Source of the DNA: Thermoplasmata archaeon
GTDB taxonomy: Archaea; Thermoplasmatota; Thermoplasmata; Lutacidiplasmatales; UBA184
DNA length: 51,617 nt
Direction: 5' to 3'
NCBI GenBank assembly: GCA_030037735.1
Contig: JASHQC010000088.1
Coordinates: 1-51,617, forward strand
The position numbers and the translations under genes were made by a program. Shown in pieces: positions 269 through 26,215 of this stretch (position 1 is the stretch's first letter; each line of letters opens with the position of its first letter). Under the pieces are notes generated by a model that was given only the letters and a program-made list of their open reading frames with translations, was not told the DNA's origin and ran no database searches.

Positions 269-1690
269 ATGCGTTGGGACACCCCGACTCGTCGTCAACG
301 TTGGAGAACCCGGCGCGGCGGCCGGTGGATGGGACTGTCGTATATCCTCCTACCGGTGGTCCTCCTCCTCCTGGGGGCGCTAAGTTTCGGGCTTGCATCG
401 GCCAAAGGGGCTGGTACCGAAACGCTGACCCTCAATCTGGGCGCCCCGTCGGCTGAGCCGACCGATTTCTGGGGGATGAATATCGCGGACGCCACTTCCG
501 CGGGCTCCAATGTGGGCGCTACCTTGCAGGAGACGCCGACGACGGTACTGGTCTACCCGGCCGGCAACCTCACGGAGCGGACCGACTTCACGACCAACAC
601 CGTCTACGGCCCGCACTCGGCGACTAAGGCCGTCGTGACGATTCAGGACTTCATCTCCGACTGCAAGGCGATCTCCTGCGAAGCGATCCTGGAACTGCCG
701 ATGGAAATTGACAACGTCTCGGTGACGGCGGCCGAGGCAGACTACGTGGTCGCGAAGCTAGACTTCCACCCCGCCTACTTCGCCTACGGCAACGAGCCCT
801 CCACGTGGAAGTGCTACAAGATTTCTTGGAGCACGCTCGCGGCATCCGGTGAGCACGCGTGCGACACCGAAGCGCCCACGCCCTCCGCGTTTGCGAACGA
901 GACCCAGGCAGCTATCTCAGCGGTTTCGACCGATCTGGGCTCCCAAGCGCCGCGCGCGCTCTGTATGAACCAGGGCACGGGCACCGGCTGGCAAAACAAC
1001 ACCCCGTGGCTCGACGCGTTGGAGGCCAACTCCTACGACAACGCCAACTGCGCCGCGTACGCGATGCACGTGAAGGCCGCGCACTCGGGCACCGCGGACC
1101 CGACGCTGGCCAATTTCTACGCGACGTTGACGGGTCCCGAGGGGCTGCCGGCCGACTACCACAACATGAGCGCGCTCACCAACGGGAAGCCGCTGCTCTT
1201 GACCGAGGTCGGTTGGACGACGCCGAACTCGGTCTACGAGCCCGTCTTCAACGGGACATGGGCCGAGAACGTCGTGCAATCCGCGATCGTGGTCGAGGCG
1301 ATGCAGAACGTTGTCCCCGACATGTCCTATTGGGTGTGGAACGAGGGCTACAGCCTCCACAATTACAACCCGTCCTCCATGTGGTCGATCTACACGAACC
1401 TCTTCACGCGACTCGGCTCGGTCTGGTACTCGACCCAGTTCACCGGCCAACGAGACGTGTTCGCGGAGGTCACGAAGAACGGGACCGCCTGGAGCGTGAT
1501 CATCGTCAGCTCCAACATCCAGAGGGGATTCACCATCTCGCTCCAGAAGACGGGGATCCCGATGACGGAGGCCGCTACCGTCTACACGGTCACCTCGACC
1601 GGGACGGCCACCGCGTCCGTCGCGAATCTCTCCAGCGGCGTCGCGCTGCCCCATCAATCCGTGGTCCTGATCACCGTCGGCACCTCGTAA
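269..1690 (+). CDS. Secreted clan GH-A-like glycoside hydrolase (GH79/GH51/GH44-like TIM barrel plus C-terminal beta-sandwich), paralog 1
   Basis: Hydrophobic signal (LSYILLPVVLLLLGALSFGLASA), FWGMN, acid/base motif YFAYGNEP, nucleophile motif LLLTEVGW, C-terminal LPHQSVVLITV. Start is ATG 269 or ATG 329; the ORF-track start at 41 adds a non-globular extension. Confidence 0.7.
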   Translation: MRWDTPTRRQRWRTRRGGRWMGLSYILLPVVLLLLGALSFGLASAKGAGTETLTLNLGAPSAEPTDFWGMNIADATSAGSNVGATLQETPTTVLVYPAGNLTERTDFTTNTVYGPHSATKAVVTIQDFISDCKAISCEAILELPMEIDNVSVTAAEADYVVAKLDFHPAYFAYGNEPSTWKCYKISWSTLAASGEHACDTEAPTPSAFANETQAAISAVSTDLGSQAPRALCMNQGTGTGWQNNTPWLDALEANSYDNANCAAYAMHVKAAHSGTADPTLANFYATLTGPEGLPADYHNMSALTNGKPLLLTEVGWTTPNSVYEPVFNGTWAENVVQSAIVVEAMQNVVPDMSYWVWNEGYSLHNYNPSSMWSIYTNLFTRLGSVWYSTQFTGQRDVFAEVTKNGTAWSVIIVSSNIQRGFTISLQKTGIPMTEAATVYTVTSTGTATASVANLSSGVALPHQSVVLITVGTS

Positions 1691-1834
1691 GCGGCGGAGC
1701 GGACGACTATCCTTTCGCCGAACGAGCCCTTCGTTCCGGTGGGCAGTCTTCGTTTGTCCAGCAAGGCCCCAGGGACGCGCCCCGGGAGGTTCCCCGGCGC
1801 CTCAACTGCGGCCCCAGAGCCGGAAGGGGGAGGC

Positions 1835-4365: not shown

Positions 4366-7300
4366 CTACGTCCCGAGTTTGTACTCCCAGAACTGGCGGG
4401 AGATCCCACCCGCATTGATGCCTCCGAATATCAGCGGTGCCCCGTTATCGATGTCGTTCGAAACCGCCGCGTAGGCGACCTTCACGAGCCCCGGCGTGTG
4501 GTTCTGTAGTTCCGTCCAGATGCCTCCCCAGAAGGCCCAAGTATCATTGAAGTACGCCGTGCCGTTGGTGCCGGCGACCAGGAGGACCACCTGGGGCTGG
4601 AGCACCACGTCGTTGACCGGCCACGGGCAGTCGACGATCCCCGCACCGTAGCGAGGCGACGGATGGCCGGTGGGGTGAAGCTGAACCCACGCTTTCCCCG
4701 TGAACTCCCACGTGTCGCCGAGCGCCCCGGAGGCTCCCTTGCCGCCGAAGAGGACGACGTAGCCGTTATCCGCGCCGCACGCGCTCGTACCCGCCGTACA
4801 ATTTCCGGCCGAGGCGTACACCATTGCGACGCTGGCCCGCGGGGACGGCGAGACGGGGAGTGATGCGGTGATGTTCGTCCACTGCCCGGCCGTACAATTT
4901 GCCGTTGTACATTTGAACACCCACGTGTCCCCGAGGTACCCGTGGGAGTTCTGGCCCCCGAACAACACGATTTCATTAGTGGCCACATCGTAGGTCATCG
5001 ACTCGTTTGCCCGGGGGGATGGCGCCCTCGTCGGGTACAGCTCTTTCCACTGTCCGTGCCCCGGGCTCCCAAGCCACTCCCAGGTGTCCCCGAGGTAACC
5101 AATTGTCCCATTGGGCTCCAGACCCCACCCGCCGAACATCACGGTCAGGTTGTACGCCGGGACCGTAGTTTTCCACTCGAGCAGCGATTTGCTGGGCAGG
5201 AGCCCGAAGTAGGCCGCCGCGCCGAAGGCGCGGGGCGATGGGTTCTCGGGAGAGTTTGCCTCGCCCCACACCTTGGGATCCCACAGCCACGTATCGTCGA
5301 GAAGGCCTACCTTGCCGCTCGGCGTGACCCCGATGCCGCCGAACACGAGGACGTCTTCACTTCGGCCATCGTAGGTGACGATGGAGCCATACCGCGCCGA
5401 CGGCTCGAGGGGTGGGGACCAAGGGTTCCAGATCTTCGACTGATAGTCCCACCGGTCGGTGAGGAGCAGTCCGGTCGACGACTTACCGTCCACGATCAGG
5501 ACCACGTTAGACGGGGCATTCGGGTCGTCGATCGTCGCGGCGAGGAACCGGGGAACGGGGGATCCCGGGATCGCGGTTTCACGGGACGTCGCGCTGATGA
5601 CGCTCCATTGGGTTCCGAACTGCCACGCAGCGCCGAGCGTGTCGGCGCCGGGGCAACTCGGGTCCATCGGGTCGAAGGACGGAGCGGCACAGCCTCCGAA
5701 GAGGAAGACGTCGTTGCTCTTATTGTCGGGAATCATCGACATCCCCCATTCTGGAGGGGGGGCCGCGTTCCCGGTGTCGATCTGGATCCACATGCCGTCC
5801 ACGAGCTTCCAGGTGTCGTCGAGCGCTGCGCCGCCCGTCGTCCCACCGAAGAGCACCGCATAGCCGGCAACGCTGTCCCACGCGAGACCGCCGAACGCTC
5901 GGGCCGTCGGGACCGGCGTCCCCCAGACGTCGGTGACTGGCGTCCAGCGCCCGCCTTGGAACTCCCAGGTGTCCGAGAAATACGCGGTCCCGTTCGTCCC
6001 GCCAAACAGGATCAGGGACCCACTCGCGTTGTCGTACGTCATCGTCGCTCCGTAGCGGGGCGAGGGGGCGGTCTTGAGGGAGAGCTCGGTCCAGTTCCCG
6101 TGCTGGAACGTCCAGGTGTCTCCGAGCGCGGCCCCGGTGGCGCTCATCCCACCGAACATCACGACATACCCGTCGGCCACGTCGTATGCCATCGCCATGT
6201 ACGAGCGGGGCGATGGCGAGAGCGTCGGGAAAATCTCCGACCAAGCCCCCGTCGGGTACGTGAGGAAGACCCACGTCTCCCCGTTGGGACCGTATCCCGT
6301 AGAGCCCCCGAACGCGACGGCGTAGCCCTCGTGGGGGGTCTTTCCCGCGCTATAGTACTTGCCCGTCGGGTCCCACGCGAAGCCGGCGCCGACGCGTCCC
6401 GGTAGCTGCGCCCAGTCCCACTCCGATTCCGATTGGACCTGGTCCCATCCGCCAGTGGAATTTTGAGTGGGCGGTATGAACGTCCAGGTGTCCGCCGCGC
6501 CGAAGCTCTGGATTCCCACGGAACCGGGCGGGTCTCCGTCGACCATGCCGCCGAAGAGGGCCACCGTGTGGTTCGCCGCGTCGTACGTCATTCCGAACGA
6601 CTGGCGGGCCGCCGGCGCCCCGTACGGGAGATACTTGAGGCCCGGAGTCTGGACCCCGGGCTGAGGGACGATTTGCTTCCAGGTACCGTTGGCGTAGCTC
6701 CAGGTGTCTCCGTACGCCGTGCACGACGCGCCGGCACAGCTCGCACCCCCGAAGAGCAACGTCGCATTCACGCCCGTGGCGTTGTCGTACGCCAATCCCG
6801 CCTCGAAGCGCGCGGGAGGCGACTTCGAGGGGGAAAGTTGAGTCCACTGCCCGTCGGCGAACTCCCAAGTGTCACCCAGGTACTTCGATCCCGTGAACCC
6901 TCCGAAGAGGAGGATGTACTCATTCGCGGCGTCGAACGTCGAGACGCTCCCCCAGCGACTACTGGGGGAGGTCGAGGGAGAGATCTGGGTCCATTCCCCC
7001 CGCGCGAACGTCCAGGTGTCTCCCAGCGCGGCGCCAGATGCGCTCATCCCGCCGAAGAGGACGAGTTGGCCGGTCGTGTTATCGTAACTCATCGTGGCGT
7101 CCTCCCGCGCGGAGGGGCTAGTCGCAGGGCTCAGCTGGTGCCATTCCCCTCTCGCGAAGGCCCAGGTGTCTCCGAGGACGTGGCCATCGTACCCCCCGAA
7201 GAGGACCAGGTAGCCTTCGGCGGCGTCGAACGCCATCGTCGCGTTGTCGCGCGGTGAAGGGCTCTCGGTGGGCGTAAGATCGACCCACATGTTGTGCCAG

Positions 7301-7803
7301 AACTCCCACGTGTCGCCGAGGTAGGACGTCCCGTTAGACCCGCCGAACAGAATGACAGACTGGTTGGCGGCGTCGTAAGCCATCACGGGCCCCACGCGCG
7401 GGCCAGGGCTCATCACGGACTCCCACTTGAGGTAGGACGCGCAAGAGCCATTCACGACGGCCGGCGCGTCGGAGCACTGCGGGGACGACCCGGCCGCGGG
7501 ACCCTGCCCGTCCGCGAGCGAAGCTTGGGCCTGGGCGAGCTGAGCCGCCCCAGTAACGTTCCCGGAAGGTACCACCGGGGACTGGGCCACCGTGCCCATC
7601 GACTGGAAGGTGGCGTACGTCGAGTTCGTGAGGCCAGACAGCAATAGGATACCGAGGACCCCGACGACCCCGGCGATGACCGTTCCGCTGCCTCGGCCTC
7701 TCCGGTAGGGGGACGCCCCCGTGAGTCGCCATCGCCGATCCGCTCTCCGGGGATCAAGCCCGCGACCGCAAGGGCTCGAAGAATCGGCTATCGACGTCGT
7801 CAT
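4366..7803 (-). CDS. Large secreted Kelch-like beta-propeller protein, 18 repeats (probably three six-bladed propellers)
   Basis: 18 units of PSPR..MAYD..VVLFGG..LGDTWxF..W counted by eye; N-terminal hydrophobic segment. Start moved to ATG 7803, supported by a TTTATA box about 32 nt upstream. Confidence 0.85.
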   Translation of the reverse strand: MTTSIADSSSPCGRGLDPRRADRRWRLTGASPYRRGRGSGTVIAGVVGVLGILLLSGLTNSTYATFQSMGTVAQSPVVPSGNVTGAAQLAQAQASLADGQGPAAGSSPQCSDAPAVVNGSCASYLKWESVMSPGPRVGPVMAYDAANQSVILFGGSNGTSYLGDTWEFWHNMWVDLTPTESPSPRDNATMAFDAAEGYLVLFGGYDGHVLGDTWAFARGEWHQLSPATSPSAREDATMSYDNTTGQLVLFGGMSASGAALGDTWTFARGEWTQISPSTSPSSRWGSVSTFDAANEYILLFGGFTGSKYLGDTWEFADGQWTQLSPSKSPPARFEAGLAYDNATGVNATLLFGGASCAGASCTAYGDTWSYANGTWKQIVPQPGVQTPGLKYLPYGAPAARQSFGMTYDAANHTVALFGGMVDGDPPGSVGIQSFGAADTWTFIPPTQNSTGGWDQVQSESEWDWAQLPGRVGAGFAWDPTGKYYSAGKTPHEGYAVAFGGSTGYGPNGETWVFLTYPTGAWSEIFPTLSPSPRSYMAMAYDVADGYVVMFGGMSATGAALGDTWTFQHGNWTELSLKTAPSPRYGATMTYDNASGSLILFGGTNGTAYFSDTWEFQGGRWTPVTDVWGTPVPTARAFGGLAWDSVAGYAVLFGGTTGGAALDDTWKLVDGMWIQIDTGNAAPPPEWGMSMIPDNKSNDVFLFGGCAAPSFDPMDPSCPGADTLGAAWQFGTQWSVISATSRETAIPGSPVPRFLAATIDDPNAPSNVVLIVDGKSSTGLLLTDRWDYQSKIWNPWSPPLEPSARYGSIVTYDGRSEDVLVFGGIGVTPSGKVGLLDDTWLWDPKVWGEANSPENPSPRAFGAAAYFGLLPSKSLLEWKTTVPAYNLTVMFGGWGLEPNGTIGYLGDTWEWLGSPGHGQWKELYPTRAPSPRANESMTYDVATNEIVLFGGQNSHGYLGDTWVFKCTTANCTAGQWTNITASLPVSPSPRASVAMVYASAGNCTAGTSACGADNGYVVLFGGKGASGALGDTWEFTGKAWVQLHPTGHPSPRYGAGIVDCPWPVNDVVLQPQVVLLVAGTNGTAYFNDTWAFWGGIWTELQNHTPGLVKVAYAAVSNDIDNGAPLIFGGINAGGISRQFWEYKLGT

Positions 7804-7834
7804 TCGCCCGGGAGCACCCCGAACAGACTTACAG

Positions 7835-7840
7835 TATAAA
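7835..7840 (-). promoter_or_regulatory. Archaeal TATA box for the Kelch-repeat gene
   Basis: TTTATA on the minus strand within an AT-rich patch, about 32 nt before ATG 7803. Confidence 0.55.
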
Positions 7841-8059
7841 TACGCATCGTAAAACTCGAGACGCACCCCAGCTCTGGCTCCCGGCGTGCGTGCCCCGGAT
7901 CGACCGGAGCGCGCGGTGACTCCCTCGAACAAGGGGCAGTACGAGAGCAAGCGGACCGACGGAGAAAGGGGTCAAGACCTTGGTGTGCCACCGCCCGCCC
8001 TTCTCGCGCTCCACCGTTCAGCGATAGTGAAGGGCAGGGTCCCTTCCTCGCGGCCAACT

Positions 8060-9019
8060 CTACCCCCCGGGGGCCATAGCGTCGGCGCTGGTCTGCCACG
8101 CCCATTGGCGGCGCAGACCGTCCGCAAGGGAAACTCGGGGTTGAAAATGCAAGAGCTCCCGGGCTCGGCGGGTGTCCGCCCAGGTCGCTCGCGGGTCTCC
8201 TGGCGGGGCCTCGCCGGATTGGGTCTCAACGGGGTGCCCGGCTAACTCACCTAGGATCCGGAGCACTTCGCTCAGCCCGGCGGGCGTACCCCCTCCCAGA
8301 TTGATGGCCCCGTCGGCCTTTTCGGTCTGGCCCGCGGCAAGTACTCCGTCGACGATGTCGTCGACGAAGGTGAAGTCTCGTGTCTGGCGCCCGTCCCCGT
8401 ACAACGTGATCGCCTTTCCCAAGCGGACCGCTTCGATGAACCGATGGAAAGCCATGTCTGGACGCTGGCCGGGCCCATACACCGTGAAGAACCGAAGGGA
8501 CGCGGCCGAGAGATCATGCGCACGGGCGTAGAGCCCGACGAGATGCTCTCCCGCAAGCTTCGTCACGCCATAGGGTGAGATCGGGTTCGGAGTGGCGGTC
8601 TCGGGGGTGGGACCGGCCGGCTGCTCTCCGTAGATCGATGAGGAACTCGCGTAGACGAACCGGGTGGGTCGCACGCGCACGGATGCCTCAAGCAGACGCT
8701 GGGTGACCAAGACGTTGTTGCGCAGGTACCGCTCGAAGTGGGCTCCCCAACTGCCCCGGACTCCTGGCTGGGCGGCGAGGTGGAAGATTCGGCAGCCCGG
8801 CTCCCACACGGTCGACGGGTCAAATCCCAGCAGATCTCGTTCTACGAGCCGAAAGTTCGGGTTTCGGCGGACCTCGGTTAGATTCCTCTCCTTCGCGGCC
8901 CGGGCGTAATAATCGTCAAAGGAATCTATCCCGACGACGGACTGCCCCTCTGCCAGCAGGCGTCTGACGAGGCGACTCCCGATGAACCCCGCCGCCCCCG
9001 TCACGACATCCGCTGGCAC
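8060..9019 (-). CDS. NAD-dependent NDP-sugar epimerase, UDP-glucuronate 4-epimerase-like
   Basis: VTGAAGFIG, HLAAQPGVR, SSSSIYG, YGVTK, RFFTVYGPGQRPDMA. Start moved to GTG 9019, with a TTAAG box about 25 nt upstream. Confidence 0.85.
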   Translation of the reverse strand: MPADVVTGAAGFIGSRLVRRLLAEGQSVVGIDSFDDYYARAAKERNLTEVRRNPNFRLVERDLLGFDPSTVWEPGCRIFHLAAQPGVRGSWGAHFERYLRNNVLVTQRLLEASVRVRPTRFVYASSSSIYGEQPAGPTPETATPNPISPYGVTKLAGEHLVGLYARAHDLSAASLRFFTVYGPGQRPDMAFHRFIEAVRLGKAITLYGDGRQTRDFTFVDDIVDGVLAAGQTEKADGAINLGGGTPAGLSEVLRILGELAGHPVETQSGEAPPGDPRATWADTRRARELLHFQPRVSLADGLRRQWAWQTSADAMAPGG

Positions 9020-11425: not shown

Positions 11426-11486
11426 AGGAGCGTGGGCCGATGCACTCCCCTCCATCGCAGATCCGTCACCCCCTGGAACGCGGTCC

Positions 11487-16738: not shown

Positions 16739-18166
16739 TCAGCCGACCTGCGCGTACCCGCCCACCGAACGTTCGTAGTAAAAGAAGTTCCAGCTTGGCG
16801 GGACCCCGACGGCGAACGGGATCATGTATTCCGGTCCTAGCCGGACCGGGACACTGAGATTCCCTCCCGTGATCCGAAGGTTGGCGAAGGAGCCGTTGAA
16901 GAAATACCGAGAGACCGGGACCTTGGACGAAGACTGCCACTCGATCTGGGTATAGGCCGCGACGAACGCCGGTCCGGTGTACGGTATCGTGGCCGTCCAC
17001 CGGGCGTCCGGGGCGCTGACATTGTGGTCGATCAATGTGAAGACGATCTCCTGTAGGGCCGGCACGCGTTCGATCGTGAGGGTCAACACCGTGCCCGGCG
17101 GCGACGGGAATCCGGAACTGACGACCCCAATCTGGCTTTCCTGGAAGTAGAACGGATTGCACGCCTTGGGGACGTACCAGGGCGCGATATGGCCGTTCGG
17201 ATCCAGGTCGACGCCGAGCTGAAAGAACCCGTGGCACGTCGCGTAGTCGGCTCCGCCGGGATTCATCGCGTTGATCTGGACGCTCAAGATCCCCGTGCGG
17301 GGAACGTTCCAGTTCGCGAGACGAATCGTGCCTGACAGGGTGTCGAAGTGCGGGAGCAGGGTAACCAGGACCCCCGAGCCCTGGCCATATCCGTCGCTCG
17401 GGTTCGGAGCGAACTGGTCGTTCAGCGCCTCGGCGATCTCGTACGTCGTGAGGATGTAGTCCGTGTACGCGACTTGACCCGCGGTCGTCAGAATGAGCGC
17501 TTCGGTGTACCGCCCTGCCGCCGGAACGGAAAGGCCGACAGTGGCCGGGAACGCGGTCTGGTCGACAAAGACGTCCATCCGCCATTTCGCCGCCGTAGAG
17601 TTCGCCCCGTTCACTCGGTAGACGTTGGCCGTCACGTACGTCCATCCCGGGGGCTGGGCGGTCCCGCGCGGCACCGGTCCGAGGTCTGAGAGGTGCGTCA
17701 CTCCGGGCCCTGCCCAGATCTGGCCCCCTCCAACTCCGATGAGGAGTACGGGCGCGCCGCTCGCACCCAGTCCGATGAATCCGGAAGCCCCGGGCCCCGT
17801 GTGGATCTCGCCTTGAATCGAGAGGAACGGCTGGCCCACCACGATGCCGCGGGTGGCGAGATCGAGCTGGGGGTGATCTCCGGCGGACGAAACCAACGAC
17901 GGCTCGCCGGCGTAGCTGGGCCGGTTTTGAACGGTGAAGGAGCCTTCGAGCGCCCGCCAGCCATCGGCCTGGAGATCTTCAAAGGTCGAGACAAAGGCAA
18001 ACGCCCCCCGGGGAGCGAACGCGGCGGCCGACGGACCGCGCACTTCCCGTACGGGTGCGAGGGACTGGGCGGCGGACCCCGGAAGCGCTGCCACGGCGGG
18101 AATCAGCAAAGCCGACGCGAGAAGTAATGCCATGATGGGCCGAGAAGGACGGTGACCGGCCCGCAC
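16739..18166 (-). CDS. Secreted hypothetical protein, beta-rich
   Basis: Signal peptide MALLLASALLIPAVAA; long ORF with protein-like composition; no family recognised with confidence. Alternative start ATG 18133. Confidence 0.7.
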   Translation of the reverse strand: MRAGHRPSRPIMALLLASALLIPAVAALPGSAAQSLAPVREVRGPSAAAFAPRGAFAFVSTFEDLQADGWRALEGSFTVQNRPSYAGEPSLVSSAGDHPQLDLATRGIVVGQPFLSIQGEIHTGPGASGFIGLGASGAPVLLIGVGGGQIWAGPGVTHLSDLGPVPRGTAQPPGWTYVTANVYRVNGANSTAAKWRMDVFVDQTAFPATVGLSVPAAGRYTEALILTTAGQVAYTDYILTTYEIAEALNDQFAPNPSDGYGQGSGVLVTLLPHFDTLSGTIRLANWNVPRTGILSVQINAMNPGGADYATCHGFFQLGVDLDPNGHIAPWYVPKACNPFYFQESQIGVVSSGFPSPPGTVLTLTIERVPALQEIVFTLIDHNVSAPDARWTATIPYTGPAFVAAYTQIEWQSSSKVPVSRYFFNGSFANLRITGGNLSVPVRLGPEYMIPFAVGVPPSWNFFYYERSVGGYAQVG

Positions 18167-18294
18167 ATCCTCGCGTATCCGCTTTGGCTATTACTCACCT
18201 TCTGGAAAGGAGCGGCAGGGTGCCTCCATGCGCCCGGCACTTCGCAGTCGCCTGGCCTTGGCCGGTGCGTGAACGAAGCCCTCGGTAGAGGCCC

Positions 18295-19266
18295 TCACGT
18301 ACCGGTGCGCCGTCGGTAGCCGTAGAGCCGGGCGAGCCATCCCGAACTGAGCCAAAAGAGCGCCCGGCTGGCACGGGGCAATCGGGTCGTCCAGCCGAAA
18401 TCCCCCTTCAGCACGATGGATCCCTGGAGGCGATTGCGGTTCCCGGCGGCGATATGCCGCATTGGGATCGGTTCCTGCGCTTCCACCCGCGCGATGACTG
18501 CGCTCAGGTCCACGCCCGCGAACCGACCGATCCGCTCGAGGGTCTCTCGGGGATGCGTGACCAGGTCCTCATACCGAACCCGGAGATACCGGTTCCGATC
18601 TCCCGAGCAGAGGAGCGTAGCGAAGAGATTGCCCGCGACCCACCTCGCCACCACAAAGGGAGGGAACCGGATCCAAGGTCCTCCGGCTTCGGGACTGTCC
18701 TTCAGCTGCGACTCCGACCAGAGAAGCGCCCGGCCGTCCCGGACGAGGTGAAGGTATCTCACCGAGAGCCGTCGAGGGTCGTTCAGCCGATAGACCCAAC
18801 CGCGGAGGGCGCCGAGACTCGATTCCACGATCAGCCGAGAGCCGGTGTCCCGAGCCAGGATCCGAAGGAATGCCTCCATCGCCTCCGTGTGCCGTTGGAG
18901 TTCCCGTCGTGCGGCGCCCCGGGCTGACAACGTCCGGAGAAGCGAACTCCAGGTTTCATAGCGAAGCTGGCCGTTCCGCAGGTCTTGGAGGCGTTGCGCC
19001 TGCTCTAACTCCTGACGTACAGGCGCCCAAAGCGCGCAACTGAGCACCGGGCTCCCGCACGAACACAGCCGGGCCGGGTCCCCCGGGGTCCATATCGGTG
19101 AGGGAAAACGATACAGTTCGCCCACGAAGAAGATCTCCGGATGCCCGGCGAGCACGGCCCCGAGCGCCGTCGCTCCCGATTTGTGGTGTCCTACGATGTA
19201 CAGCAGCTCGAGCGGCGGAGTACCCGCGGCGGGAGCGGCTCTCTCGGCCAACGGGACCGCCGTCAC
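18295..19266 (-). CDS. PAPS-dependent sulfotransferase (Sulfotransfer_3-like)
   Basis: 5'-PSB loop YIVGHHKSGATAL, FVGEL, CSCG..C..W insert, 3'-PB motif HLVRDGRA, VRYEDLV..P. Start GTG 19266 after GGAGG (approximate). Confidence 0.85.
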   Translation of the reverse strand: MTAVPLAERAAPAAGTPPLELLYIVGHHKSGATALGAVLAGHPEIFFVGELYRFPSPIWTPGDPARLCSCGSPVLSCALWAPVRQELEQAQRLQDLRNGQLRYETWSSLLRTLSARGAARRELQRHTEAMEAFLRILARDTGSRLIVESSLGALRGWVYRLNDPRRLSVRYLHLVRDGRALLWSESQLKDSPEAGGPWIRFPPFVVARWVAGNLFATLLCSGDRNRYLRVRYEDLVTHPRETLERIGRFAGVDLSAVIARVEAQEPIPMRHIAAGNRNRLQGSIVLKGDFGWTTRLPRASRALFWLSSGWLARLYGYRRRTGT

Positions 19267-19602
19267 AAACCTCCGTCCCAAGAGGGGCCGATTTCGCTCC
19301 CGATCTTCATCCGCGATCTGCCCCCTTTAATTTGGCCCCTGGAGAGGGGATCTGAACTGCCCGAGGGACACCCGGGCCACGGCTCCTCCGTTCCTCCGGA
19401 ACCCTCTGCTCGCTCATAGTGCGGTGGTTGGGGCCCGGTTCCACTATCCCGGGAACCGCTGACGGGCATAAGACGGGTCGGGGCGGGTTGCCACCGCGAA
19501 AAGCCTTTCCACCGCTACGTCTGCGGCTCCCGGCCGCACGGCGGGATCGCTCCGGGTACCGGCGTCTACTCCGTCCCGGCGCCACTCCCCCTTCGTGGTT
19601 GG

Positions 19603-20781
19603 ATGGACGCCTTCATGGAACCAGCGCCGCACGGGGGAAAACTCGTTAACCGCCAGATGTCCGAGACCGAGAGAACTCGGCGCGAGGGGGAGCTGGGCGA
19701 CCTCCCCCAGCTCGTCCCTTTCGTGGACCAAATTTACGATACGGAGAAGATCGGGATAGGCGCCTACAGTCCCCTGGAAGGTTTCATGGACTCGGCCACG
19801 CTCGATTCGGTGCTCCGCGCAGGCCGGCTTCCGAATGGGCTGCCTTGGACTATGCCCGTGCTCCTCCCAATCCCCCCGGCCACCGACCCGGAGATTGCCG
19901 CGAGGCTTCAACCGGGAGAGGAGGTCGCCCTGCTGGACCCCGGCCGTCGGTTCCTCGGCCTGCTCCACGTGACCGAGCGGTTCCGTTACGACAAGAAAGC
20001 CCTCGCCCAATCGGTGTACGGAACGACCGACCCGGCCCATCCGAACGTGCAGGACCTGGCGACGGCGGGCGAGGAAACGCTCGCCGGAACAGTCGAACTG
20101 GCCCAGCGTCTGGCGTTGCCCCGGGGCCGATCCGAGATGACCCCGGCGGAGACACGGGCGGCATTTGCCGCCAAGGGATGGAAGAACGTGGCGGCGTACC
20201 AATGCCGGAACCCCCCGCACACCGCCCATGAGTACATCCAGCGGCTGACCCTGGAACGGGAGGACGTGGACGGCCTGCTCGTCCATCCGGTCGTCGGCCG
20301 GCTCAAGAAGGGAGACTACCGCCCGGAGGTGATCCTTCAGGCCTACGAAGCGCTGCTGACCCACTATTATCCCGCCGACCGCGTCCTGCTGAGTCCGCTC
20401 ACAATCTCGATGCGCTACGCCGGTCCGAAGGCGGCGCTCTTTCTGGCCATCGTCCGGAAGAACTACGGTTGTGGGCTCTACATTGTGGGACGGGACCAGG
20501 CCGGCGTGGGCCGATTCTACGCCCCGACGGCCGCGCACCGGATTTTCGACGAATACGATATCGGCGTGACCCCTCTTCGGTACGATGAGTCCTTTTTCTG
20601 CCGTTCTTGCGGTTGGATGGCGAGCGCGAAGACGTGCGCCCATCCTCCCTCCGACCGGATCGACACGAGCCAGACCCGCATCCGCAAGGCGCTAAGCGAC
20701 GGCGGCGAACTTCCGGTCGAGCTTCTCCGACCGGAGGTCGCGGCGATCCTCCGCGGGCCCGACGTCCTGCTCACGGAGTGA
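19603..20781 (+). CDS. sat: Sulfate adenylyltransferase (ATP sulfurylase)
   Basis: PHGGKL, YSPLEGFM, HPNV, QCRNPPHTAHE, MRYAGPK, RKNYGC, IVGRDQAG, Zn-site CRSC..CAH. Confidence 0.95.
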   Translation: MDAFMEPAPHGGKLVNRQMSETERTRREGELGDLPQLVPFVDQIYDTEKIGIGAYSPLEGFMDSATLDSVLRAGRLPNGLPWTMPVLLPIPPATDPEIAARLQPGEEVALLDPGRRFLGLLHVTERFRYDKKALAQSVYGTTDPAHPNVQDLATAGEETLAGTVELAQRLALPRGRSEMTPAETRAAFAAKGWKNVAAYQCRNPPHTAHEYIQRLTLEREDVDGLLVHPVVGRLKKGDYRPEVILQAYEALLTHYYPADRVLLSPLTISMRYAGPKAALFLAIVRKNYGCGLYIVGRDQAGVGRFYAPTAAHRIFDEYDIGVTPLRYDESFFCRSCGWMASAKTCAHPPSDRIDTSQTRIRKALSDGGELPVELLRPEVAAILRGPDVLLTE

Positions 20782-20988
20782 CAACCCCCGGCTCCCCGTG
20801 CCCCTCGCGTCGCAAGGATCCAGCGGACGCCTTCCTGATCCCGCCGGGCCGTTACAAAATCCTTGCCCAAGTTCCTCCGGTCTTCGGGTCCGATGGGGCC
20901 TCGACCGGGCGGGGAGAATACGTTCCCCTACGCATAGCGAAACGGCCATAAGCTAGGGTCACTCCTCCCGCGACCCTCAGGTGGTCGG

Positions 20989-21595
20989 CATGGCACCTCG
21001 CGCCGCCGGATTCTGCATTTGGCTCACGGGGCTCCCGAGCGCCGGGAAGACCACCATCGCCCACGAGCTGACGCCGCTGCTTCGGGCCCGCGGTTGGTAC
21101 GCCGAACTGCTCGACGGGGACGAGATCCGGAAGGGACTGAGCGCGGACCTCGGGTTTGATCGGAAATCCCGCGAAACGCACGCCGGCCGGGTCGCGTTCG
21201 TCGCGAAGCTACTGGCGCGGAACGGGGCCATTCCGCTGGTCGCTCTCATCTCCCCGTACCGGACCTCGCGGGCCAAAGCCCGGACCGAGATCGGTCGTTT
21301 TGTCGAGGTGTATGTCAACACCCCATTGGACGTCTGCGAGCAGAGGGATGTGAAGGGGCTCTACAAGCGGGCGCGGGCGGGCGAGATCAAGGACATGACG
21401 GGCGTCGACGATCCCTACGAACCCCCGGAGGCCCCGGATCTCGTCGTCGATGCGGTGAGAAACAGCCCCCGTGAGTCGGCGGTGTACATCGTCCGGGAGC
21501 TCGAACGCCAGGGTTGGCTTCCTCCGGCCAGTCCGACCGACCTCCCGGTGGGATTTCCCGAGTCCTCCCCTTCTCGCTCCTGGGCCACGCCATAG
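20989..21595 (+). CDS. cysC: Adenylyl-sulfate (APS) kinase
   Basis: IWLTGLPSAGKTT, LDGDEIR, ISPY, RDVKGLY, TGVDDPYEPP. Start approximate (MAPRAAGF). Confidence 0.95.
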
Positions 21596-21673
21596 GCCAC
21601 GGGGTCCGGTGGGGGGCAAGGTTCCTGTGTTCGGAAAGTCCCTCTCCCTGTCCCGCGGCGGGGGCCGCAATCC

Positions 21674-22504
21674 GTGATGGCCGTCCCCGGTCCCTCCTCT
21701 CGCGCCGCCCCCGAAGCGCTCCGGGGGGGCGGCCCTCGCCTCCAGATCCTGCTCGATTTCGACGGGACGCTCGTCGAACCGAACGTTGCGATCGTTCTCG
21801 TCGAGCGGTTCTGCCCCGATGGCCAGCGAGTGGCCCACGAGATCGACCAAGAGCTGCACGCCGGACACATCACCTTACGCGAGGCCTGGGCCCGTCAAGT
21901 CGCGTTGCTTCCCCCGTCCCGCCTCCACGAAATGACCGACTTCGTGGCCCGGGAAGTCCCTCTACGTCGTGGCGCCCGGCGGTTGCTCGGGCTTCTCCGC
22001 GAGCACAACGTCCCGACCGCGATCGTGTCCGGTGGACTCGAATTCTTCATTCGCCCGGTGCTGGCGCGCGAAGGGCTCGAGTACCCGCTGTTCGCCGACG
22101 GAATCGAATACGACGGGGAGGCGCGGCTCCGCGTCGTGCACCCGTACGGGCATCCGACGTGCCGGCTCTGCGGCATCTGCAAGGCCAACGTGGCCCTACG
22201 CTTCGGCGCGCCAGGGGTCTCGACGGTCTTCATCGGGGACGGGAGCACGGACAAGTACGCCGCCGAAGTGGCGGAGATCGTCTTCGCCCGACATCGCCTC
22301 CAGGAGTACTGTGCCCGGGCCAACGTCCCTTTCTTCCCGTTCGACGATTTTGACCCTGTGACGAACCGGCTGGAAGGATGGCTCACGGGGGTCCATCCGC
22401 TGCCGCCTCCTCGTTCCCGGGGGCTTGCCACAAGCGCCTGCCCGATTTCTCAGGAACTCTCCCGGAGTCCCCCCCGAGACGTGGGGCAGGGTGTGGTCCG
22501 CTAG
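21674..22504 (+). CDS. HAD-IB phosphatase, MtnX-like
   Basis: DFDGT, IVSGG, C..CGICK, FIGDGSTD. Confidence 0.85.
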   Translation: MMAVPGPSSRAAPEALRGGGPRLQILLDFDGTLVEPNVAIVLVERFCPDGQRVAHEIDQELHAGHITLREAWARQVALLPPSRLHEMTDFVAREVPLRRGARRLLGLLREHNVPTAIVSGGLEFFIRPVLAREGLEYPLFADGIEYDGEARLRVVHPYGHPTCRLCGICKANVALRFGAPGVSTVFIGDGSTDKYAAEVAEIVFARHRLQEYCARANVPFFPFDDFDPVTNRLEGWLTGVHPLPPPRSRGLATSACPISQELSRSPPRDVGQGVVR

Positions 22505-22526
22505 GCCGTGGTGGCAAATCCGGGGG

Positions 22527-24032
22527 TTACGATCGGACCTGGCCCCAGCCGATTCTCGGGCCCGACCCTCCCGGGGGGCGGGATCGAGGGTTCGTTGGCG
22601 CGGATTCGGACTCGTGAACATCGTGGAGTTCCTCGTCCGTCTCTTGGACCGAAATCCCGTTAGCCTGCAAGAAGGTCGAGCGTACCCCCCGGTCATCGGT
22701 GTACAGTTTGGCCGCGAGGTCGCGAATCGGATCGAGGAGGTCGCCGGGGCTCTTCGGCGAAGGCAGATAGCCCCCGCTGCGCGCGGCGGGCGTGGGAGAC
22801 GGGCCCGTTCCCGGGGGCCTGTCGTACATTTCGCGACCCGGCATCTGCACATAGAGCGCCCGACGGCCCCGGCCGAGCCGGATGACCGGACCCACGTGCC
22901 CGCTCGAGGGAACCGGCGGGTTGAGGACCGACGTCGTCGGAGCACGGCTCCCTCCGGACGTAGCCACGGGCGGGGAAGCAGGACCAGGGAGAGGAGCGGG
23001 GAGGGGAGGCTCGGGTCGCACGACCACCCGGGGTCGAAGTCCGCTTCGTTCGAGAAGGAACGCCACCGCGTGGGCATCGGGCTCTTGCGATGGCGGGGTG
23101 ACGAGGATCAGGTCCCCCCCGCCCACCAACGCGGTCACTAGGAGATCTCGGATGACTGCCGGTAGGGAGGACGTGGCGGGAGGCGCCGCCTGCAACGACT
23201 TGTGGCCGTGGCGGATGATGCTGAGCAGGATCCGAATCCCGTCCGAGACCGCGTGGAGCTTCGGCTCTCCGACCCGCTCGCCGTACGGGATGGGGATCTG
23301 AAAGATTGTCCAGCCGGCCCGCTGGCCCTTGAGGAACAGCTCCGCCTCGATGCCGAAGTCGTGGGACAGAATGTTGAGCTCCCGGGCCCGCTCGACCTGG
23401 ACTCCCCAGAAGCCGCTGCACACGTCCAGAATTCGGGAGCGGCTGACCTGGCCCGCGACGAAATTGAGCAACGCGTTCCCGATCCGATGCACCAGCTCCC
23501 GGGTGTTCCGGGGGGGGCCGGTCCCCGTTTGTCGCACACCGACCACGAGATGACTGCCGGCATCCAGGAGTTCCAGCGTGGGCAGAACCGACTTTCCGGG
23601 GTACGACCCATCGGCGTCGAGCACCACCGCGAACTGAACGTTCCTTTCGGCGAGCCAGTCGAGCGCCTCCCGAATCGCCCCTCCTTTTCCGTGGCTCTTC
23701 TGACGGAGCACCGGGACGCCCCAGGAAGCGGCCACCTCGGTGGTGCGGTCGATCGACCCACCGTCAACGACCAAAGGTCGCACCCGCCACCCGGCGGCCG
23801 CGAGTCGCTTGAAAGGAATGCTGAGGAGGGTCTGGGAGAGCCCGGCCTCCTCGTTCAGCGCCGGTAGGATGATCGCGGCGTTCGCCTCCTCGAACGAGCC
23901 GGCCATCACGAACGGGGAAGTGGAGTCCTGGCTCAAAAACGGGGCGGTCGATTCGGGCCGATGATCAGCTCGCCCCTCAATGACGTATAACGGAACCGAG
24001 GCGCTAGAAAATGATTCATCGATGGTTGCCAT
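22527..24032 (-). CDS. Glycosyltransferase family 2 (polyprenol-phosphate glycosyltransferase-like) with long C-terminal extension
   Basis: ILPALNEE, VVDGGSIDRT, GKGGA, LDADGSY, DVCSGF, FGIEAEL, YGERVGEPKL. Confidence 0.85.
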   Translation of the reverse strand: MATIDESFSSASVPLYVIEGRADHRPESTAPFLSQDSTSPFVMAGSFEEANAAIILPALNEEAGLSQTLLSIPFKRLAAAGWRVRPLVVDGGSIDRTTEVAASWGVPVLRQKSHGKGGAIREALDWLAERNVQFAVVLDADGSYPGKSVLPTLELLDAGSHLVVGVRQTGTGPPRNTRELVHRIGNALLNFVAGQVSRSRILDVCSGFWGVQVERARELNILSHDFGIEAELFLKGQRAGWTIFQIPIPYGERVGEPKLHAVSDGIRILLSIIRHGHKSLQAAPPATSSLPAVIRDLLVTALVGGGDLILVTPPSQEPDAHAVAFLLERSGLRPRVVVRPEPPLPAPLPGPASPPVATSGGSRAPTTSVLNPPVPSSGHVGPVIRLGRGRRALYVQMPGREMYDRPPGTGPSPTPAARSGGYLPSPKSPGDLLDPIRDLAAKLYTDDRGVRSTFLQANGISVQETDEELHDVHESESAPTNPRSRPPGGSGPRIGWGQVRS

Positions 24033-24587: not shown

Positions 24588-24652
24588 TCGCGAGCCGGAC
24601 TTGCACCGTCAGCTGGAGCCCGAGGGGGGAGGGGGACGGGAGACCCAATCGG

Positions 24653-26215
24653 ATGAAAGTTAGCGCCTGGAGTCTGGCGGCACTGGCTGTTGGCCTAACC
24701 ATTGCGCTGCTGGTGACTTCGTTCAGCGTTTCGACGATGTCCCCCGGAGTACCAGAGGGCCCTTCGGCCATTACCCCCCTTGACACCGCCACCGGTGCCG
24801 TGGTCGTAGGGGCCTTCTCACTCGCGACCCCAGCCCCGGCGGCATTCTGGGGCGTCAATGTTGCCGCCGCTCAGCGGTTCGATGCTGCCGATGCTGCCGC
24901 CGTCGCCGCGACCCCTGTGACCTACATCCGGTTCCCCGCCGGGGTACTCGGGGAGGAGTTCAACTACACTTCGGGGGTAATCACAGGTCAATCGGGTTCA
25001 CGGAGCGATGCCACTACCAGTACCAAAGAGTTCGTCGCCTCTTGCAAGACGATAGCCTGTCGAGCGATCCTGCAGCTGCCGGCGGAAATTGACTCCCCGG
25101 CGACCGCCGCGTACTACGCCAGCTACGTGGTCCATACCTTGGGATACCAACCGGCCTACTGGGAGATCGGAAACGGTCCCGCCGGTTGGACCCATTTCGA
25201 TCTCCCATGGTCCGAGTGGAAGTCCAAAGGCGGGGGGAACGCCACCCCTCTCCAGTTCGCCAATCTCGTTCATGCCTACATCCAGGCCGTCCTCAAGGTC
25301 GACCCAGCCGCTCAGTTCATCGCGCTGGGCGCCGGGATGGGGGCCAAGGACTATTCCAAGCCATGGGTCGAGGAGCTCGCCAAGGTAGATGGGAGCGAGC
25401 TGGCCGGAATCTCCGTTCACTCCTACGTCGAGGGAGGCCCCTCCCATCCAACGGACGCCGAACTGTTTGCGAACCTGAACGGAATCTACTCCCTCCCGGC
25501 CCAGGTCTCCGCCGATCGGTCGTACATCACGGCCGCCTGCCCGAGCTGCACAAAGCTCCAGATCTTCGTCTCCGAGATCAATGCCGCCGAAGCGAGCCCG
25601 TACAGCAAGCTTCTCCCGACGTTTGCCGGGACACTGTATCTCGCCGTGGAGACGGTCCAGGGACTGTCGCTCCATGTGGCCAACCTCGACTGGTTTGCCT
25701 ACGACAGCGACTACCAGGGGTCCTGGTCCCGGCACCCGATGGACTGGCAAATGCAGTACTTTCTGTTCAGTGACCTGCTGACCCATTTGTACCCTGACAC
25801 GCTCCCCACGACGGTGACGGGACCCTCGACCCTGTATGGGATCGCGACGTACGACCGGTCCGGCCTCGCCCTGCTCTTGGTGAATGTCGACACCTCGACC
25901 GCCGTGACCGTCAATATTGCCTCGGCAGGGTTTATCCTGGGTCGTGCCGACGTCACGCAGTACTCGTGGCAGGATGGCGCCCACGAGCCCACCAAGGCCT
26001 CCGTCGCGCTATCGAGCACCGTGAAGGTCCCGGCCATGTCGATCGTCCTATTGACCGTCGAGTCGGCCGGCATGAAGTCTCCCGCGTCCGGGAGCGAACC
26101 CGCTTCAGTGGTGATCACCCCAGTCGGTCCGCCCCGGACGTTCGAGCTGGTTTCGGGGTCGGAGGGCCTCACGGCCCCCGCGACGTTTGCGATCTCTAGC
26201 CGGGCCGACACCTAG
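24653..26215 (+). CDS. Secreted GH-A-like protein (paralog 3) lacking the acid/base glutamate
   Basis: Signal peptide MKVSAWSLAALAVG; FWGVN, IRFPAG, LPAEID, YWEIGNGP (NEP in the paralogs), ISVHSY, IFVSEIN. Confidence 0.78.
   Translation: MKVSAWSLAALAVGLTIALLVTSFSVSTMSPGVPEGPSAITPLDTATGAVVVGAFSLATPAPAAFWGVNVAAAQRFDAADAAAVAATPVTYIRFPAGVLGEEFNYTSGVITGQSGSRSDATTSTKEFVASCKTIACRAILQLPAEIDSPATAAYYASYVVHTLGYQPAYWEIGNGPAGWTHFDLPWSEWKSKGGGNATPLQFANLVHAYIQAVLKVDPAAQFIALGAGMGAKDYSKPWVEELAKVDGSELAGISVHSYVEGGPSHPTDAELFANLNGIYSLPAQVSADRSYITAACPSCTKLQIFVSEINAAEASPYSKLLPTFAGTLYLAVETVQGLSLHVANLDWFAYDSDYQGSWSRHPMDWQMQYFLFSDLLTHLYPDTLPTTVTGPSTLYGIATYDRSGLALLLVNVDTSTAVTVNIASAGFILGRADVTQYSWQDGAHEPTKASVALSSTVKVPAMSIVLLTVESAGMKSPASGSEPASVVITPVGPPRTFELVSGSEGLTAPATFAISSRADT

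Follow-up and report, generated by a model that had tools for sequence, protein, structure and literature searches.

Why does a Thermoplasmata archaeon keep an ATP sulfurylase, an adenosine 5'-phosphosulfate (APS) kinase and a sulfotransferase among genes for glycosyltransferases, nucleotide-sugar epimerases and large secreted proteins? We addressed this question on contig JASHQC010000088.1 of assembly GCA_030037735.1. The window analysed here is the whole of this contig (51,617 bases; C3 among the contigs of its genome), and coordinates given without a contig name are window positions. The genome is a metagenome-assembled genome (MAG) of 1.77 Mb in 112 contigs and is 85.4% complete. We consider it probable that the genes at 329-26215, which are part of a larger island, make a sulfated, uronate-containing envelope glycan. 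What is established directly is the identity of the genes, the folds, the synteny and the fact that searches for a reductive branch found none.

The island and its continuation beyond the window

The open reading frames (ORFs) of the window were scanned against Pfam and NCBIfam. Every gene named in a first-pass annotation, made earlier from the sequence alone, was found at or near the position given there, and two further genes within the same span, for a secreted protein of 475 amino acids (aa) and for a haloacid dehalogenase (HAD) phosphatase, had been left undescribed. The portion of the island that lies in the window comprises 15 genes. In the following list GH-A stands for glycoside hydrolase (GH) clan A, SDR for short-chain dehydrogenase/reductase, and GT4 and GT2 for glycosyltransferase (GT) families 4 and 2.

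329-1690 (+), GH-A-like paralog 1, 453 aa, secreted or anchored through an N-terminal hydrophobic segment
1835-4033 (-), Kelch+PKD surface protein (Pfam Kelch, two PKD domains)
4366-7950 (-), large multi-propeller Kelch surface protein (PF24681 229.7 bits, PF13418 192.4 bits)
8060-9118 (-), epimerase 1, extended SDR, UDP-glucuronate 4-epimerase-like (PF01370 179.5 bits)
9136-10302 (+), GT4 glycosyltransferase a (PF00534 85.7 bits, PF13692 85.1 bits)
10550-11425 (+), epimerase 2, extended SDR, GalE/RmlD-like (PF01370 161.1 bits, PF04321 104.3 bits)
11487-12698 (+), GT4 glycosyltransferase b (PF00534 115 bits, PF13439 78.7 bits)
12877-16716 (+), GH-A-like paralog 2 with C-terminal repeats, secreted (23% identity to paralog 1)
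16739-18166 (-), secreted 475-aa protein with a predicted tandem lectin-type fold (structure model)
18295-19281 (-), sulfotransferase, Sulfotransfer_3 (PF13469 47.5 bits, cut-off 27; PF00685 24.5 bits)
19603-20781 (+), ATP sulfurylase Sat (PF01747 260.5 bits, PF14306 132.6 bits; PRK04149 406.7 bits, cut-off 387)
20981-21595 (+), APS kinase CysC (PF01583 202.2 bits; TIGR00455 207.7 bits, cut-off 138.7)
21674-22504 (+), HAD-IB phosphatase (PF12710 59.1 bits; TIGR01488 HAD-SF-IB 73.5 bits, cut-off 45)
22527-24032 (-), GT2, polyprenyl/dolichyl-phosphate hexosyltransferase-like (PF00535 46.8 bits)
24653-26215 (+), GH-A-like paralog 3 (29% identity to paralog 1)

The sulfotransferase is divergent from Sat, as had been noted before, with a spacer of 321 bp. 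The ATG at 329 is a likelier start for the first gene than position 269. The G+C content is about 65% throughout the window, and no compositional break was seen.

In a congener with a near-complete genome of 5 contigs (G008), the first 14 of these genes (329-24032) have counterparts in the same order, at 59-87% amino acid identity, at about 720.3-743.8 kb. The same genes are also colinear in a second relative, G005, and this colinearity in both genomes indicates that the grouping is not due to chance. The check that the first-pass annotation had proposed, conserved linkage in relatives, came out in its favour, and linkage to glycan genes was seen beyond the genus as well. The 475-aa lectin-fold gene adjoins the sulfotransferase in G008 and G005 too, and the closest G008 homologs of paralog 3 are encoded farther upstream within the island and not at the position of paralog 3.

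Upstream of the window, the region 698.6-720.7 kb of G008 is colinear with contig C58 of our genome and runs directly into the window gene order. The upstream order shared by C58 and G008 is GalU (UDP-glucose pyrophosphorylase), UDP-glucose dehydrogenase (UGDH), a sulfotransferase, a Wzx flippase, a GH-A-like protein of 871 aa, a DUF1616 protein, a protein with 11 transmembrane (TM) segments and a phosphoesterase-Kelch protein; contig C63 maps, by G008 synteny, to the next part upstream of C58. The last 794 bases of C58 (17131-17924) are 88.2% identical at the nucleotide level to window positions 1-794, and co-assembled strain variants probably split the assembly within the first GH-A-like gene. 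The genes at 329-26215 are best explained as the right-hand portion, roughly 26 kb long, of an island for a cell-surface glycan that extends over about 45-50 kb or more.

The layout of the island varies among relatives. A compact version in G006 has the order sulfotransferase, DUF1616, 11-TM, GH-A-like, epimerase 1, sulfotransferase, GT4a, GT4b, GT2, Sat and CysC, and G007 keeps only Sat-CysC-HAD, beside a trehalose module. The adjacency of Sat, CysC and HAD is kept in G008, G005 and G007, even with different glycan neighbours. The different layouts in G005, G006 and G007 point to a variable envelope-glycan region around a stable module for 3'-phosphoadenosine 5'-phosphosulfate (PAPS). In G007, Sat matches in two adjacent pieces (G007:C11 16109-17271) and has no sulfotransferase beside Sat-CysC; the split suggests a frameshift or an assembly error.

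A PAPS-type sulfotransferase beside the genes for its donor

Sulfotransferases of the PAPS-dependent type carry an N-terminal 5'-phosphosulfate-binding (PSB) loop and a 3'-phosphate-binding R-D-x-R/S motif. The window sulfotransferase passes the PF13469 cut-off and has both PAPS-binding motifs, and all 10 aligned paralogs and orthologs match PF13469 and PF00685. Invariant across these 10 are Gly36 and Thr38 in a basic-S/C-G-x-T PSB loop, Glu55, H-V-R-D-G-R at 178-183, Ser189 and a C-S-C...C motif. Glu55 aligns with the Glu of P-P-E-L in the sulfotransferase (ST) domains of CurM and 4gox, a position with a putative catalytic role. The protein is without a TM segment and is, as judged from these motifs, a predicted cytoplasmic PAPS-type sulfotransferase. 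Its nearest solved relatives are the polyketide synthase ST domains 4gox (E 3.5e-9) and CurM 4gbm (E 8e-6), followed by TPST2 (E 1.7e-4).

The genome has four PF13469 genes, on the window contig, C58, C63 and C10. The C58 gene is placed between UGDH and the Wzx flippase, the C63 gene is near two GH-A-like genes and a GT4, and the C10 gene, which is more distant in sequence, overlaps a GT4 gene. When one genome per species was scanned, 373 relatives of the window sulfotransferase were obtained, of which the best 77 loci were analysed; 19 are from Thermoplasmata MAGs and 58 are bacterial (mostly Actinomycetota, 29-36% identity). Among the Thermoplasmata loci of this set, 15 of 19 have at least one homolog of a GT, an epimerase, Wzx, UGDH or the 11-TM protein within 10 kb (tblastn with island proteins), and two of the four that lack such glycan neighbours are contigs of less than 3.5 kb. 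At the 58 bacterial loci, a tblastn search with the archaeal queries gave a GT4a-like gene within 10 kb in 9 and a Wzx-like gene in 6.

The HAD-IB phosphatase is not part of the module everywhere. In G039 and G040, which belong to two other families, Sat and CysC are grouped compactly with a PF13469 gene and, instead of HAD, a gene of the DHH family; in G039 this module adjoins a sulfate symporter and nonulosonic-acid genes. Because HAD is kept beside Sat-CysC and the DHH gene takes its place in the module of these two genomes, the HAD-IB protein may be a non-orthologous phosphatase for 3'-phosphoadenosine 5'-phosphate (PAP), and we treat it as a candidate for this role. A single gene of the inositol-monophosphatase family is present as well, on C39.

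Several other genes of sulfate activation and transfer were seen. A second APS-kinase paralog (C38:18656-19186, -) is 49% identical to CysC; the paralog is close to Sat-CysC in G005, G012 and G018, and in G005 (C133:3149-3721) it stands directly beside the island GT2. An in-frame TGA was flagged for this paralog in several relatives and was considered as possible recoding; in G005, the one inspected, it is the stop codon of the gene, and the paralog of our own genome is without an internal stop, so that recoding was rejected. In G022, which is of another genus, positions 1-6200 of contig C11 carry two sulfotransferases and Sat, then an ENPP-type phosphodiesterase and a ComA-type phosphosulfolactate synthase, which is a different sulfur-metabolite context.

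The reductive branch

Neither PAPS reductase (PAPS_reduct, PF01507) nor sulfite reductase (NIR_SIR, PF01077) gave a match in the window or in the rest of the 85.4%-complete genome. The two profiles were positive in 14 of 14 and 11 of 14 control genomes, respectively. The first-pass annotation had seen no PAPS/APS reductase or sulfite reductase in the window, which the profile search bore out, and the whole-genome search for cysH/sir that it called for returned no match either. Among the 9 genomes of the genus, six gave PF01507 scores of 20.9-22.9 bits, which are marginal and do not exceed the cut-off, and none gave a strong match; NIR_SIR was absent from all five congeners searched, which are 85-93% complete. 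In 25 genomes of the family, PF13469 was found in 10, a strong PAPS reductase (E <= 1e-30) in 8 and both together in none, a pattern that amounts to few independent events because the 25 genomes are kin.

A phylogenetic profile of Sat/CysC against the sulfotransferase was also considered as an argument and was dropped, since the two do not co-vary: CysC is present in 29 and Sat in 27 of 41 genomes, PF13469 in 12 and the window-type sulfotransferase in 6. Of the profile data, the non-overlap of PF13469 with strong PAPS reductases was retained.

Nucleotide sugars, glycosyltransferases and flippase

The best sequence matches of epimerase 1 in the PDB are the 6zl6/6zla/6zld/6zlk/6zll group (E 1.9e-79), followed by MoeE5 (1e-64); the best entry titled as a dehydratase, 5u4q, reached 2.3e-50 and the best titled as a UDP-glucose 4-epimerase, 7ys8, 4.3e-43. 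Of these, 6ZLL and 6ZLD, together with 6ZLJ, are listed in PMC11519531 as structures of UDP-glucuronic acid 4-epimerase. No NCBIfam equivalog for epimerase 1 was over its cut-off. Epimerase 1 is therefore closer by sequence to UDP-glucuronic acid (UDP-GlcA) 4-epimerases than to GalE or the dehydratases, and is a UDP-glucuronate 4-epimerase-like protein predicted to convert UDP-GlcA into UDP-galacturonic acid (UDP-GalA) and back. Epimerase 2 has its best PDB matches among UDP-glucose 4-epimerases (E 2e-31) and is a putative GalE/RmlD-like nucleotide-sugar epimerase or reductase. The glucuronyl C5-epimerase profile PF06662 had no match in the genome.

The two GT4 enzymes have G008 orthologs at the same positions, 75% (GT4a) and 85% (GT4b) identical, and score against NCBIfam glycolipid and exopolysaccharide (EPS) synthases, all below cut-off. 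The GT2 scored 108.9 bits against the NCBIfam model for AglJ, below its cut-off of 325, and 84.7 bits against DPhHxTase_Halo; its sole PDB sequence match is the dolichol monophosphate mannose (DPM) synthase 5mlz (E 4.6e-9), and it has one TM segment, at 292-311. This protein resembles the AglJ/DPM-synthase class and is a candidate for the enzyme that initiates the glycan or forms a dolichyl-phosphate-linked sugar.

The first-pass annotation had seen neither a flippase nor a polymerase in the window. No Wzy was found with a model that is insensitive: Wzy_C (PF04932) was absent from 9 of 9 genomes (our own and 8 relatives) and was also positive in 0 of 5 archaeal controls. The missing flippase is resolved, since a Wzx-type flippase (PF01943, 85.6 bits) is encoded on C58, which continues the island by synteny. 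An AglB/STT3 homolog (46.1 bits) lies on C59, outside the island.

C58 also encodes, at 11463-13559 (-), a protein of 698 aa with 11 predicted TM segments and a soluble C-terminal part, which is kept in the G008 and G006 islands. Its similarity to DUF2206 is below threshold (E 4.6e-4), and its Atlas neighbours include clusters with DUF2206 (10%) and PMT_2 (17%). These features make it a candidate GT-C-type transferase or polymerase. We found no literature on DUF2206 in archaea.

Secreted proteins of the island

The Kelch proteins are predicted to be exposed and are rich in N-glycosylation sequons. The Kelch+PKD protein has hydrophobic segments at 11-38 (N-terminal signal or anchor) and 657-689 (C-terminal TM). 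The ORF of the large Kelch protein is 1194 aa with a hydrophobic segment at ORF residues 85-110, and its true start is probably downstream, just before this segment. Sequons of the N-X-S/T type number 18 in the Kelch+PKD protein, where shuffling gives a mean of 4.8, 25 in the large Kelch protein (shuffled mean 6.6) and 28 in GH-A-like paralog 2 (shuffled mean 12.3); in each case none of 2000 shuffles reached the observed number. The same was true of the 871-aa GH-A paralog of C58, the phosphoesterase-Kelch protein and a 1089-aa protein downstream of the island, so that an excess was seen in 6 of the 9 secreted or membrane proteins tested from the island and its neighbourhood (18-28 sequons each, shuffled means 4.8-12.3). 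GH-A-like paralogs 1 and 3 and the 475-aa lectin-fold protein were not enriched, and the nine cytoplasmic or transport proteins tested had 0-2 sequons each. The Kelch+PKD protein is a probable N-glycoprotein on this count, and the sequon excess makes the Kelch proteins look more like glycoprotein cargo than like binders.

The GH-A-like proteins form a family of their own. Paralogs 1 and 3 are 29% identical (E 6e-39), paralogs 1 and 2 23% (E 9e-14) and the remaining pair 23% (E 2e-21), and each of the three has an N-terminal hydrophobic segment. With paralog 1, no Pfam family was matched at E <= 1 except FHIPEP at chance level, no NCBIfam match was obtained, and no PDB sequence match fell below E 0.8; the named Pfam families GH79, GH44, GH30, GH51, GH39 and GH5 were not matched by the GH-A-like proteins. 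A profile search of 1.84 billion representatives placed 524 clusters in the family at E <= 0.001, 314 of them at E <= 1e-30.

The AlphaFold model of paralog 1 (predicted local distance difference test, pLDDT, 70.9; predicted template modelling score, pTM, 0.71) combines a (beta/alpha)8 barrel and an accessory beta-sandwich. Foldseek matched this model to GH44, GH79, GH51 and GH30 enzymes (E about 1e-15), and the top-scoring solved folds were beta-glucuronidase and heparanase; among the closest known proteins are AcGlcA79A, which is a beta-glucuronidase of GH79, and bacterial heparanase (PDB 8b0d, 3vny, 5bwi). Enzymes of clan GH-A have the acid/base Glu after strand 4, in N-E-P, and the nucleophile Glu after strand 7. 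The putative catalytic pair of paralog 1 is Glu156, in an N-E-P motif after the strand 150-153, and Glu293, after the strand 289-292. Counted over 167 sequences (4 from our genome and 163 retrieved), Glu293 is kept in 167 and Glu156 in 152. Paralogs 1 and 2 keep both the putative acid/base Glu of N-E-P and the putative nucleophile. The label "clan GH-A-like", which the first-pass annotation had used, is thus borne out at the level of predicted fold and motif, and assignment to a named GH family is not, since fold and motif match and no family matches by sequence.

Paralog 3 keeps the putative nucleophile Glu and has Gly at the acid/base position (G-N-G-P), and the 871-aa paralog of C58 (C58:7358-9973, -) has Asp there. 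In all, 15 of the 167 members have Gly, Asp, Ser, Ala or Thr at this position with the nucleophile Glu kept; these variants might possibly be transglycosylases, enzymes with substrate-assisted catalysis or binding proteins. The C-terminal part of paralog 2 (14400-16700) is made up of about nine repeats of about 80-85 aa with a G-L-P-x-G motif, spaced by 62-124 and mostly by 77-84, which had no Pfam match. Three copies of the repeat are present in the 871-aa paralog, and the downstream 1089-aa protein (37538-40807) shows weak tblastn similarity to the repeats.

For the secreted 475-aa protein, neither Pfam nor NCBIfam gave a match. Its homologs make up 95 clusters, and those with a named source are nearly all labelled Thermoplasmata. 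An Atlas look-up scored below 0.9 and was taken as a lead only; it was replaced by a fold search. The model (pLDDT 82.9, pTM 0.80) consists of two concanavalin-A-like jelly rolls of the galectin/laminin-G type, for which the top Foldseek matches, at E about 2e-7, were to tandem galectins and to LG4-5 pairs of laminin; the global TM scores of these matches are low (0.2-0.3) because the arrangement of the domains differs. This model makes the 475-aa protein the best candidate glycan binder of the island.

Proposed pathway and its alternatives

The island is most economically explained by an Agl-like pathway. GalU and UGDH, encoded on the adjoining contig C58, would provide UDP-GlcA, from which epimerase 1 would form UDP-GalA. 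The AglJ/DPM-synthase-like GT2 and the two GT4s would then build an acidic oligosaccharide on dolichyl (polyprenyl) phosphate at the cytoplasmic face. Sat and CysC would make PAPS locally, the soluble PAPS-type sulfotransferases (those of the window, C58 and C63) would sulfate lipid- or nucleotide-linked sugars in the cytoplasm, and the HAD phosphatase may clear the PAP by-product. The Wzx flippase of C58 would move the glycan outward. The likeliest attachment would be N-linkage, with AglB transferring the glycan to those Kelch and GH-A-like proteins of the island that are rich in sequons and anchored in the membrane, and EPS or a lipoglycan would be a less likely end product; the GH79-like and tandem lectin-fold proteins may, speculatively, trim or bind the glycan. 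In this scheme we infer the acceptor, the carrier lipid, the order of the steps and the final attachment. Given that a sulfated glycan is made, we place the N-linked protein form at a little below an even chance. The sulfated, possibly uronic-acid-containing surface glycan foreseen by the first-pass annotation is consistent with the conserved linkage, the failure to detect cysH/sir, the presence of UGDH, GalU and Wzx on the continuing contig and the type of epimerase 1; its proposal that the product is trimmed or bound by secreted enzymes of the same locus is speculative. An extended form of the scheme, in which wall-less soil Thermoplasmata independently built a glycosaminoglycan-like system (a PAPS-sulfated GlcA/GalA glycocalyx that is displayed on the surface proteins of the island and turned over or read by its GH-A-like and laminin-G/galectin-like proteins, with HAD-IB as a new type of PAP phosphatase), seems to us unlikely.

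Several observations weigh against a sulfated, uronate-containing glycan made in the way proposed. Sat and CysC are found in 20 and 22 of 24 genomes of the family against 9 of 24 for PF13469 sulfotransferases, and since they are so much commoner, their presence alone is no sign of sulfation. In G007, Sat-CysC-HAD adjoin trehalose genes without a neighbouring sulfotransferase, and no sulfate importer was matched in our genome by SulP (PF00916) or the Na/sulfate symporter (PF00939). None of the nearest solved sulfotransferases, which are polyketide-synthase ST domains and protein-tyrosine sulfotransferases, is carbohydrate-specific, and the closest non-archaeal homologs among the best 77 of 373 loci are the actinomycete genes, 29-36% identical and without an assigned role. 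The AglJ-like label of the GT2 is sub-threshold, AglB lies on C59 and not in the island, and the GH-A-like model, with its pLDDT of 70.9, is of middling confidence. The GH-A-like family occurs in 16 of 41 relatives, 10 of which are without PF13469 sulfotransferases; together with the cargo-like character of the Kelch propellers, this weakens the first-pass idea that secreted enzymes encoded by the locus itself trim or bind its glycan. Finally, the order C63-C58-C3 comes from relatives and from the 88% overlap and was not assembled, in a MAG of 112 contigs.

These points bear differently on the alternatives. That Sat and CysC serve ordinary assimilatory sulfate reduction, with the sulfotransferase next to them by accident, would agree with their wide distribution in the family, with strong PAPS reductases in other genera (in G017 next to Sat) and with the incomplete state of the genome (85%). 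We hold this explanation to be very remote, because the genome lacks detectable PAPS and sulfite reductases, a strong PAPS reductase is found in 0 of 9 genomes of the genus and sulfite reductase in 0 of 5 congeners, and the divergent sulfotransferase/Sat pair is kept in G008 and G005, while Sat adjoins a sulfotransferase in G022 and shares the island with one in G006. The sulfotransferases might instead act on a non-carbohydrate acceptor, such as a lipid of the membrane, a small metabolite or tyrosine residues in exported proteins (RaxST-like), and leave the nearby glycan unsulfated. The identity of the nearest solved relatives suits this view, as do the mostly actinomycetotal bacterial homologs with their few GT4a-like and Wzx-like neighbours; it is at odds with the glycan genes at 15 of the 19 Thermoplasmata loci in the set analysed, with the C58 paralog between UGDH and Wzx and with the fourth, more distant sulfotransferase that overlaps a GT4 on C10, and we judge it quite improbable.

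The remaining alternatives accept sulfation and differ in what is made of the product. A sulfated EPS or a glycolipid/lipoglycan of the wall-less envelope, in place of an N-linked glycan, would account for the location of AglB on another contig, for the sub-threshold scores of the GT4s against glycolipid and EPS synthases and for the 11-TM protein, which could be a GT-C-type transferase or polymerase, and the gene content is broadly that of the sulfated EPS clusters of bacteria. The strong sequon excess in the island surface proteins and the AglJ/DPM-synthase-like character of the GT2 argue against this view, as does, weakly in view of its silence in the archaeal controls, the failure of Wzy_C in 9 genomes; on these grounds an EPS or lipoglycan appears somewhat unlikely. 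Nearer to an even chance, and only slightly short of it, is the possibility that the sulfated glycan is made while the GH-A-like, Kelch and lectin-fold proteins neither remodel nor bind it, being its cargo or foraging enzymes for plant polymers (glucuronoxylan, xyloglucan, arabinan) that are present through co-regulation of envelope genes or paralog expansion. The GH-A-like family is in fact expanded, with 9 matches in our genome, 10 in G005 and 9 in G008, and 10 of the 16 relatives that have it lack PF13469; sequons are strongly enriched in the Kelch proteins, in paralog 2 and in the C58 paralog, with C-terminal anchors in several of the proteins; and the DNA sequencing runs that contain the window sequence are peat metagenomes. 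On the other side, rearrangements in G008, G005 and G006 have left GH-A-like paralogs within the island, their top solved folds, beta-glucuronidase and heparanase, fit the uronate genes of the island, and a GH within a sulfated-EPS cluster has a bacterial precedent in WpsE of wps-1, as described in PMC13390465.

Comparison with known systems

A dedicated pair of ATP sulfurylase and APS kinase beside a PAPS sulfotransferase, separate from assimilation, is known from the rhizobial NodP/NodQ and NodH, which sulfate the Nod factor. That system differs from the island in being bacterial, in having a sulfurylase of the CysDN type and not Sat, and in its acceptor, which is a lipo-chitooligosaccharide signal and not an envelope glycan. 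In archaea, the closest parallel is the N-glycosylation of Halobacterium salinarum by Agl30 and Agl31. As reported in PMC11980604, more than one enzyme sulfates an acidic glucuronic/iduronic glycan on dolichol phosphate there; the genes are grouped with others for glycosylation, and a soluble protein is among the sulfotransferases, as is proposed or found here. The two systems differ in the enzymes, since Agl30 and Agl31 are sulfatase-like proteins of the alkaline-phosphatase superfamily and the island has PAPS-type Sulfotransfer_3 proteins beside Sat and CysC; moreover, aglB anchors the haloarchaeal cluster (PMC11980604), whereas AglB of our genome is encoded on another contig and PF06662 was not found. 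In Haloferax volcanii, according to PMC3892788, the Agl5-Agl15 gene cluster of the low-salt pathway sulfates a hexose bound to dolichyl phosphate (DolP) before translocation (Agl7) and has a dedicated flippase, Agl15; its glycan contains rhamnose besides hexoses, and that account reports neither uronate genes nor PAPS genes. The PF13469 profile was silent in the H. volcanii control genome, so that no sulfotransferase of this type is detected there. Haloarchaea thus offer a precedent for the sulfation of DolP-bound sugars before flipping (PMC3892788; PMC11980604).

C63, an island contig, carries at 14914-16314 (+) the sole sulfatase-family gene of the genome (PF00884, 93.7 bits). The protein is in the same superfamily as haloarchaeal Agl30/Agl31. 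It is without a signal peptide, and the Cys/Ser-x-Pro-x-Arg motif is not at the expected place, which points to a cytoplasmic sulfatase-fold protein.

The locus is real and coherent, and the design of a sulfated-glycan cluster is already known in bacteria from wps-1. In Actinoplanes missouriensis this cluster unites Wzx, glycosyltransferases, two sulfotransferases and a glycoside hydrolase, and is predicted to make a sulfated EPS (PMC13390465). It differs from the island in being Wzx/Wzy/Wzz-dependent and in its sulfotransferases, which are of the Gal/GlcNAc/GalNAc type and the heparan-sulfate type; as described in that paper, it has neither Sat-CysC nor co-encoded sequon-rich surface proteins. 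The Synechocystis synechan cluster is grouped with the bacterial sulfated-EPS clusters on the basis of the reference list of the same paper.

For archaea, a 2024 review still lists the sulfotransferases found by Pfam PF03567 as uncharacterised (PMC11625862), and a term search in the available text of PMC9287336, on a soil Thermoplasmatota order, gave 0 occurrences of sulfotransferase, PAPS or adenylyltransferase. The first-pass annotation knew of no such system in Thermoplasmata, and our search of the literature, which did not cover supplements, agrees in giving no description of a sulfated-glycan or sulfotransferase locus in this class. In the sources that we consulted, Agl30 and Agl31 of Halobacterium, both sulfatase-like, are the sole characterised archaeal glycan sulfotransferases so far, and the type found in the island has not yet been studied in archaea; if the proposed pathway is true, the PAPS sulfotransferases described here have a different fold from the characterised ones. 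The island offers a concrete and nearly complete PAPS-driven gene set, with donor synthesis, uronate supply, transferases, a flippase and candidate targets, and its route is open to test through the expression of a few soluble enzymes. Two protein families are defined by it as well: a sizeable one, so far without annotation, whose predicted fold is GH79/GH51-like (524 representative clusters), and one of secreted proteins with a tandem lectin-type predicted fold (95 homologous clusters). Sulfated acidic envelopes could matter to archaea in peat through cation binding, water retention and acid tolerance. No RNA runs are listed for window positions 16739-24032, for which the runs are peat-metagenome DNA only.

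Genes downstream of the island

Downstream of paralog 3 the window contains a CrtI-family flavoprotein, a trehalose-type module and housekeeping genes. The members of the module are:

29442-30839, TreT-like GT4
30840-31598, MscS channel
31618-33507, GH15

The block 27808-33507, in which these three genes lie, is without a counterpart at the corresponding position of G008 and adjoins Sat-CysC-HAD in G007. The block resembles a movable trehalose/osmoprotection module.

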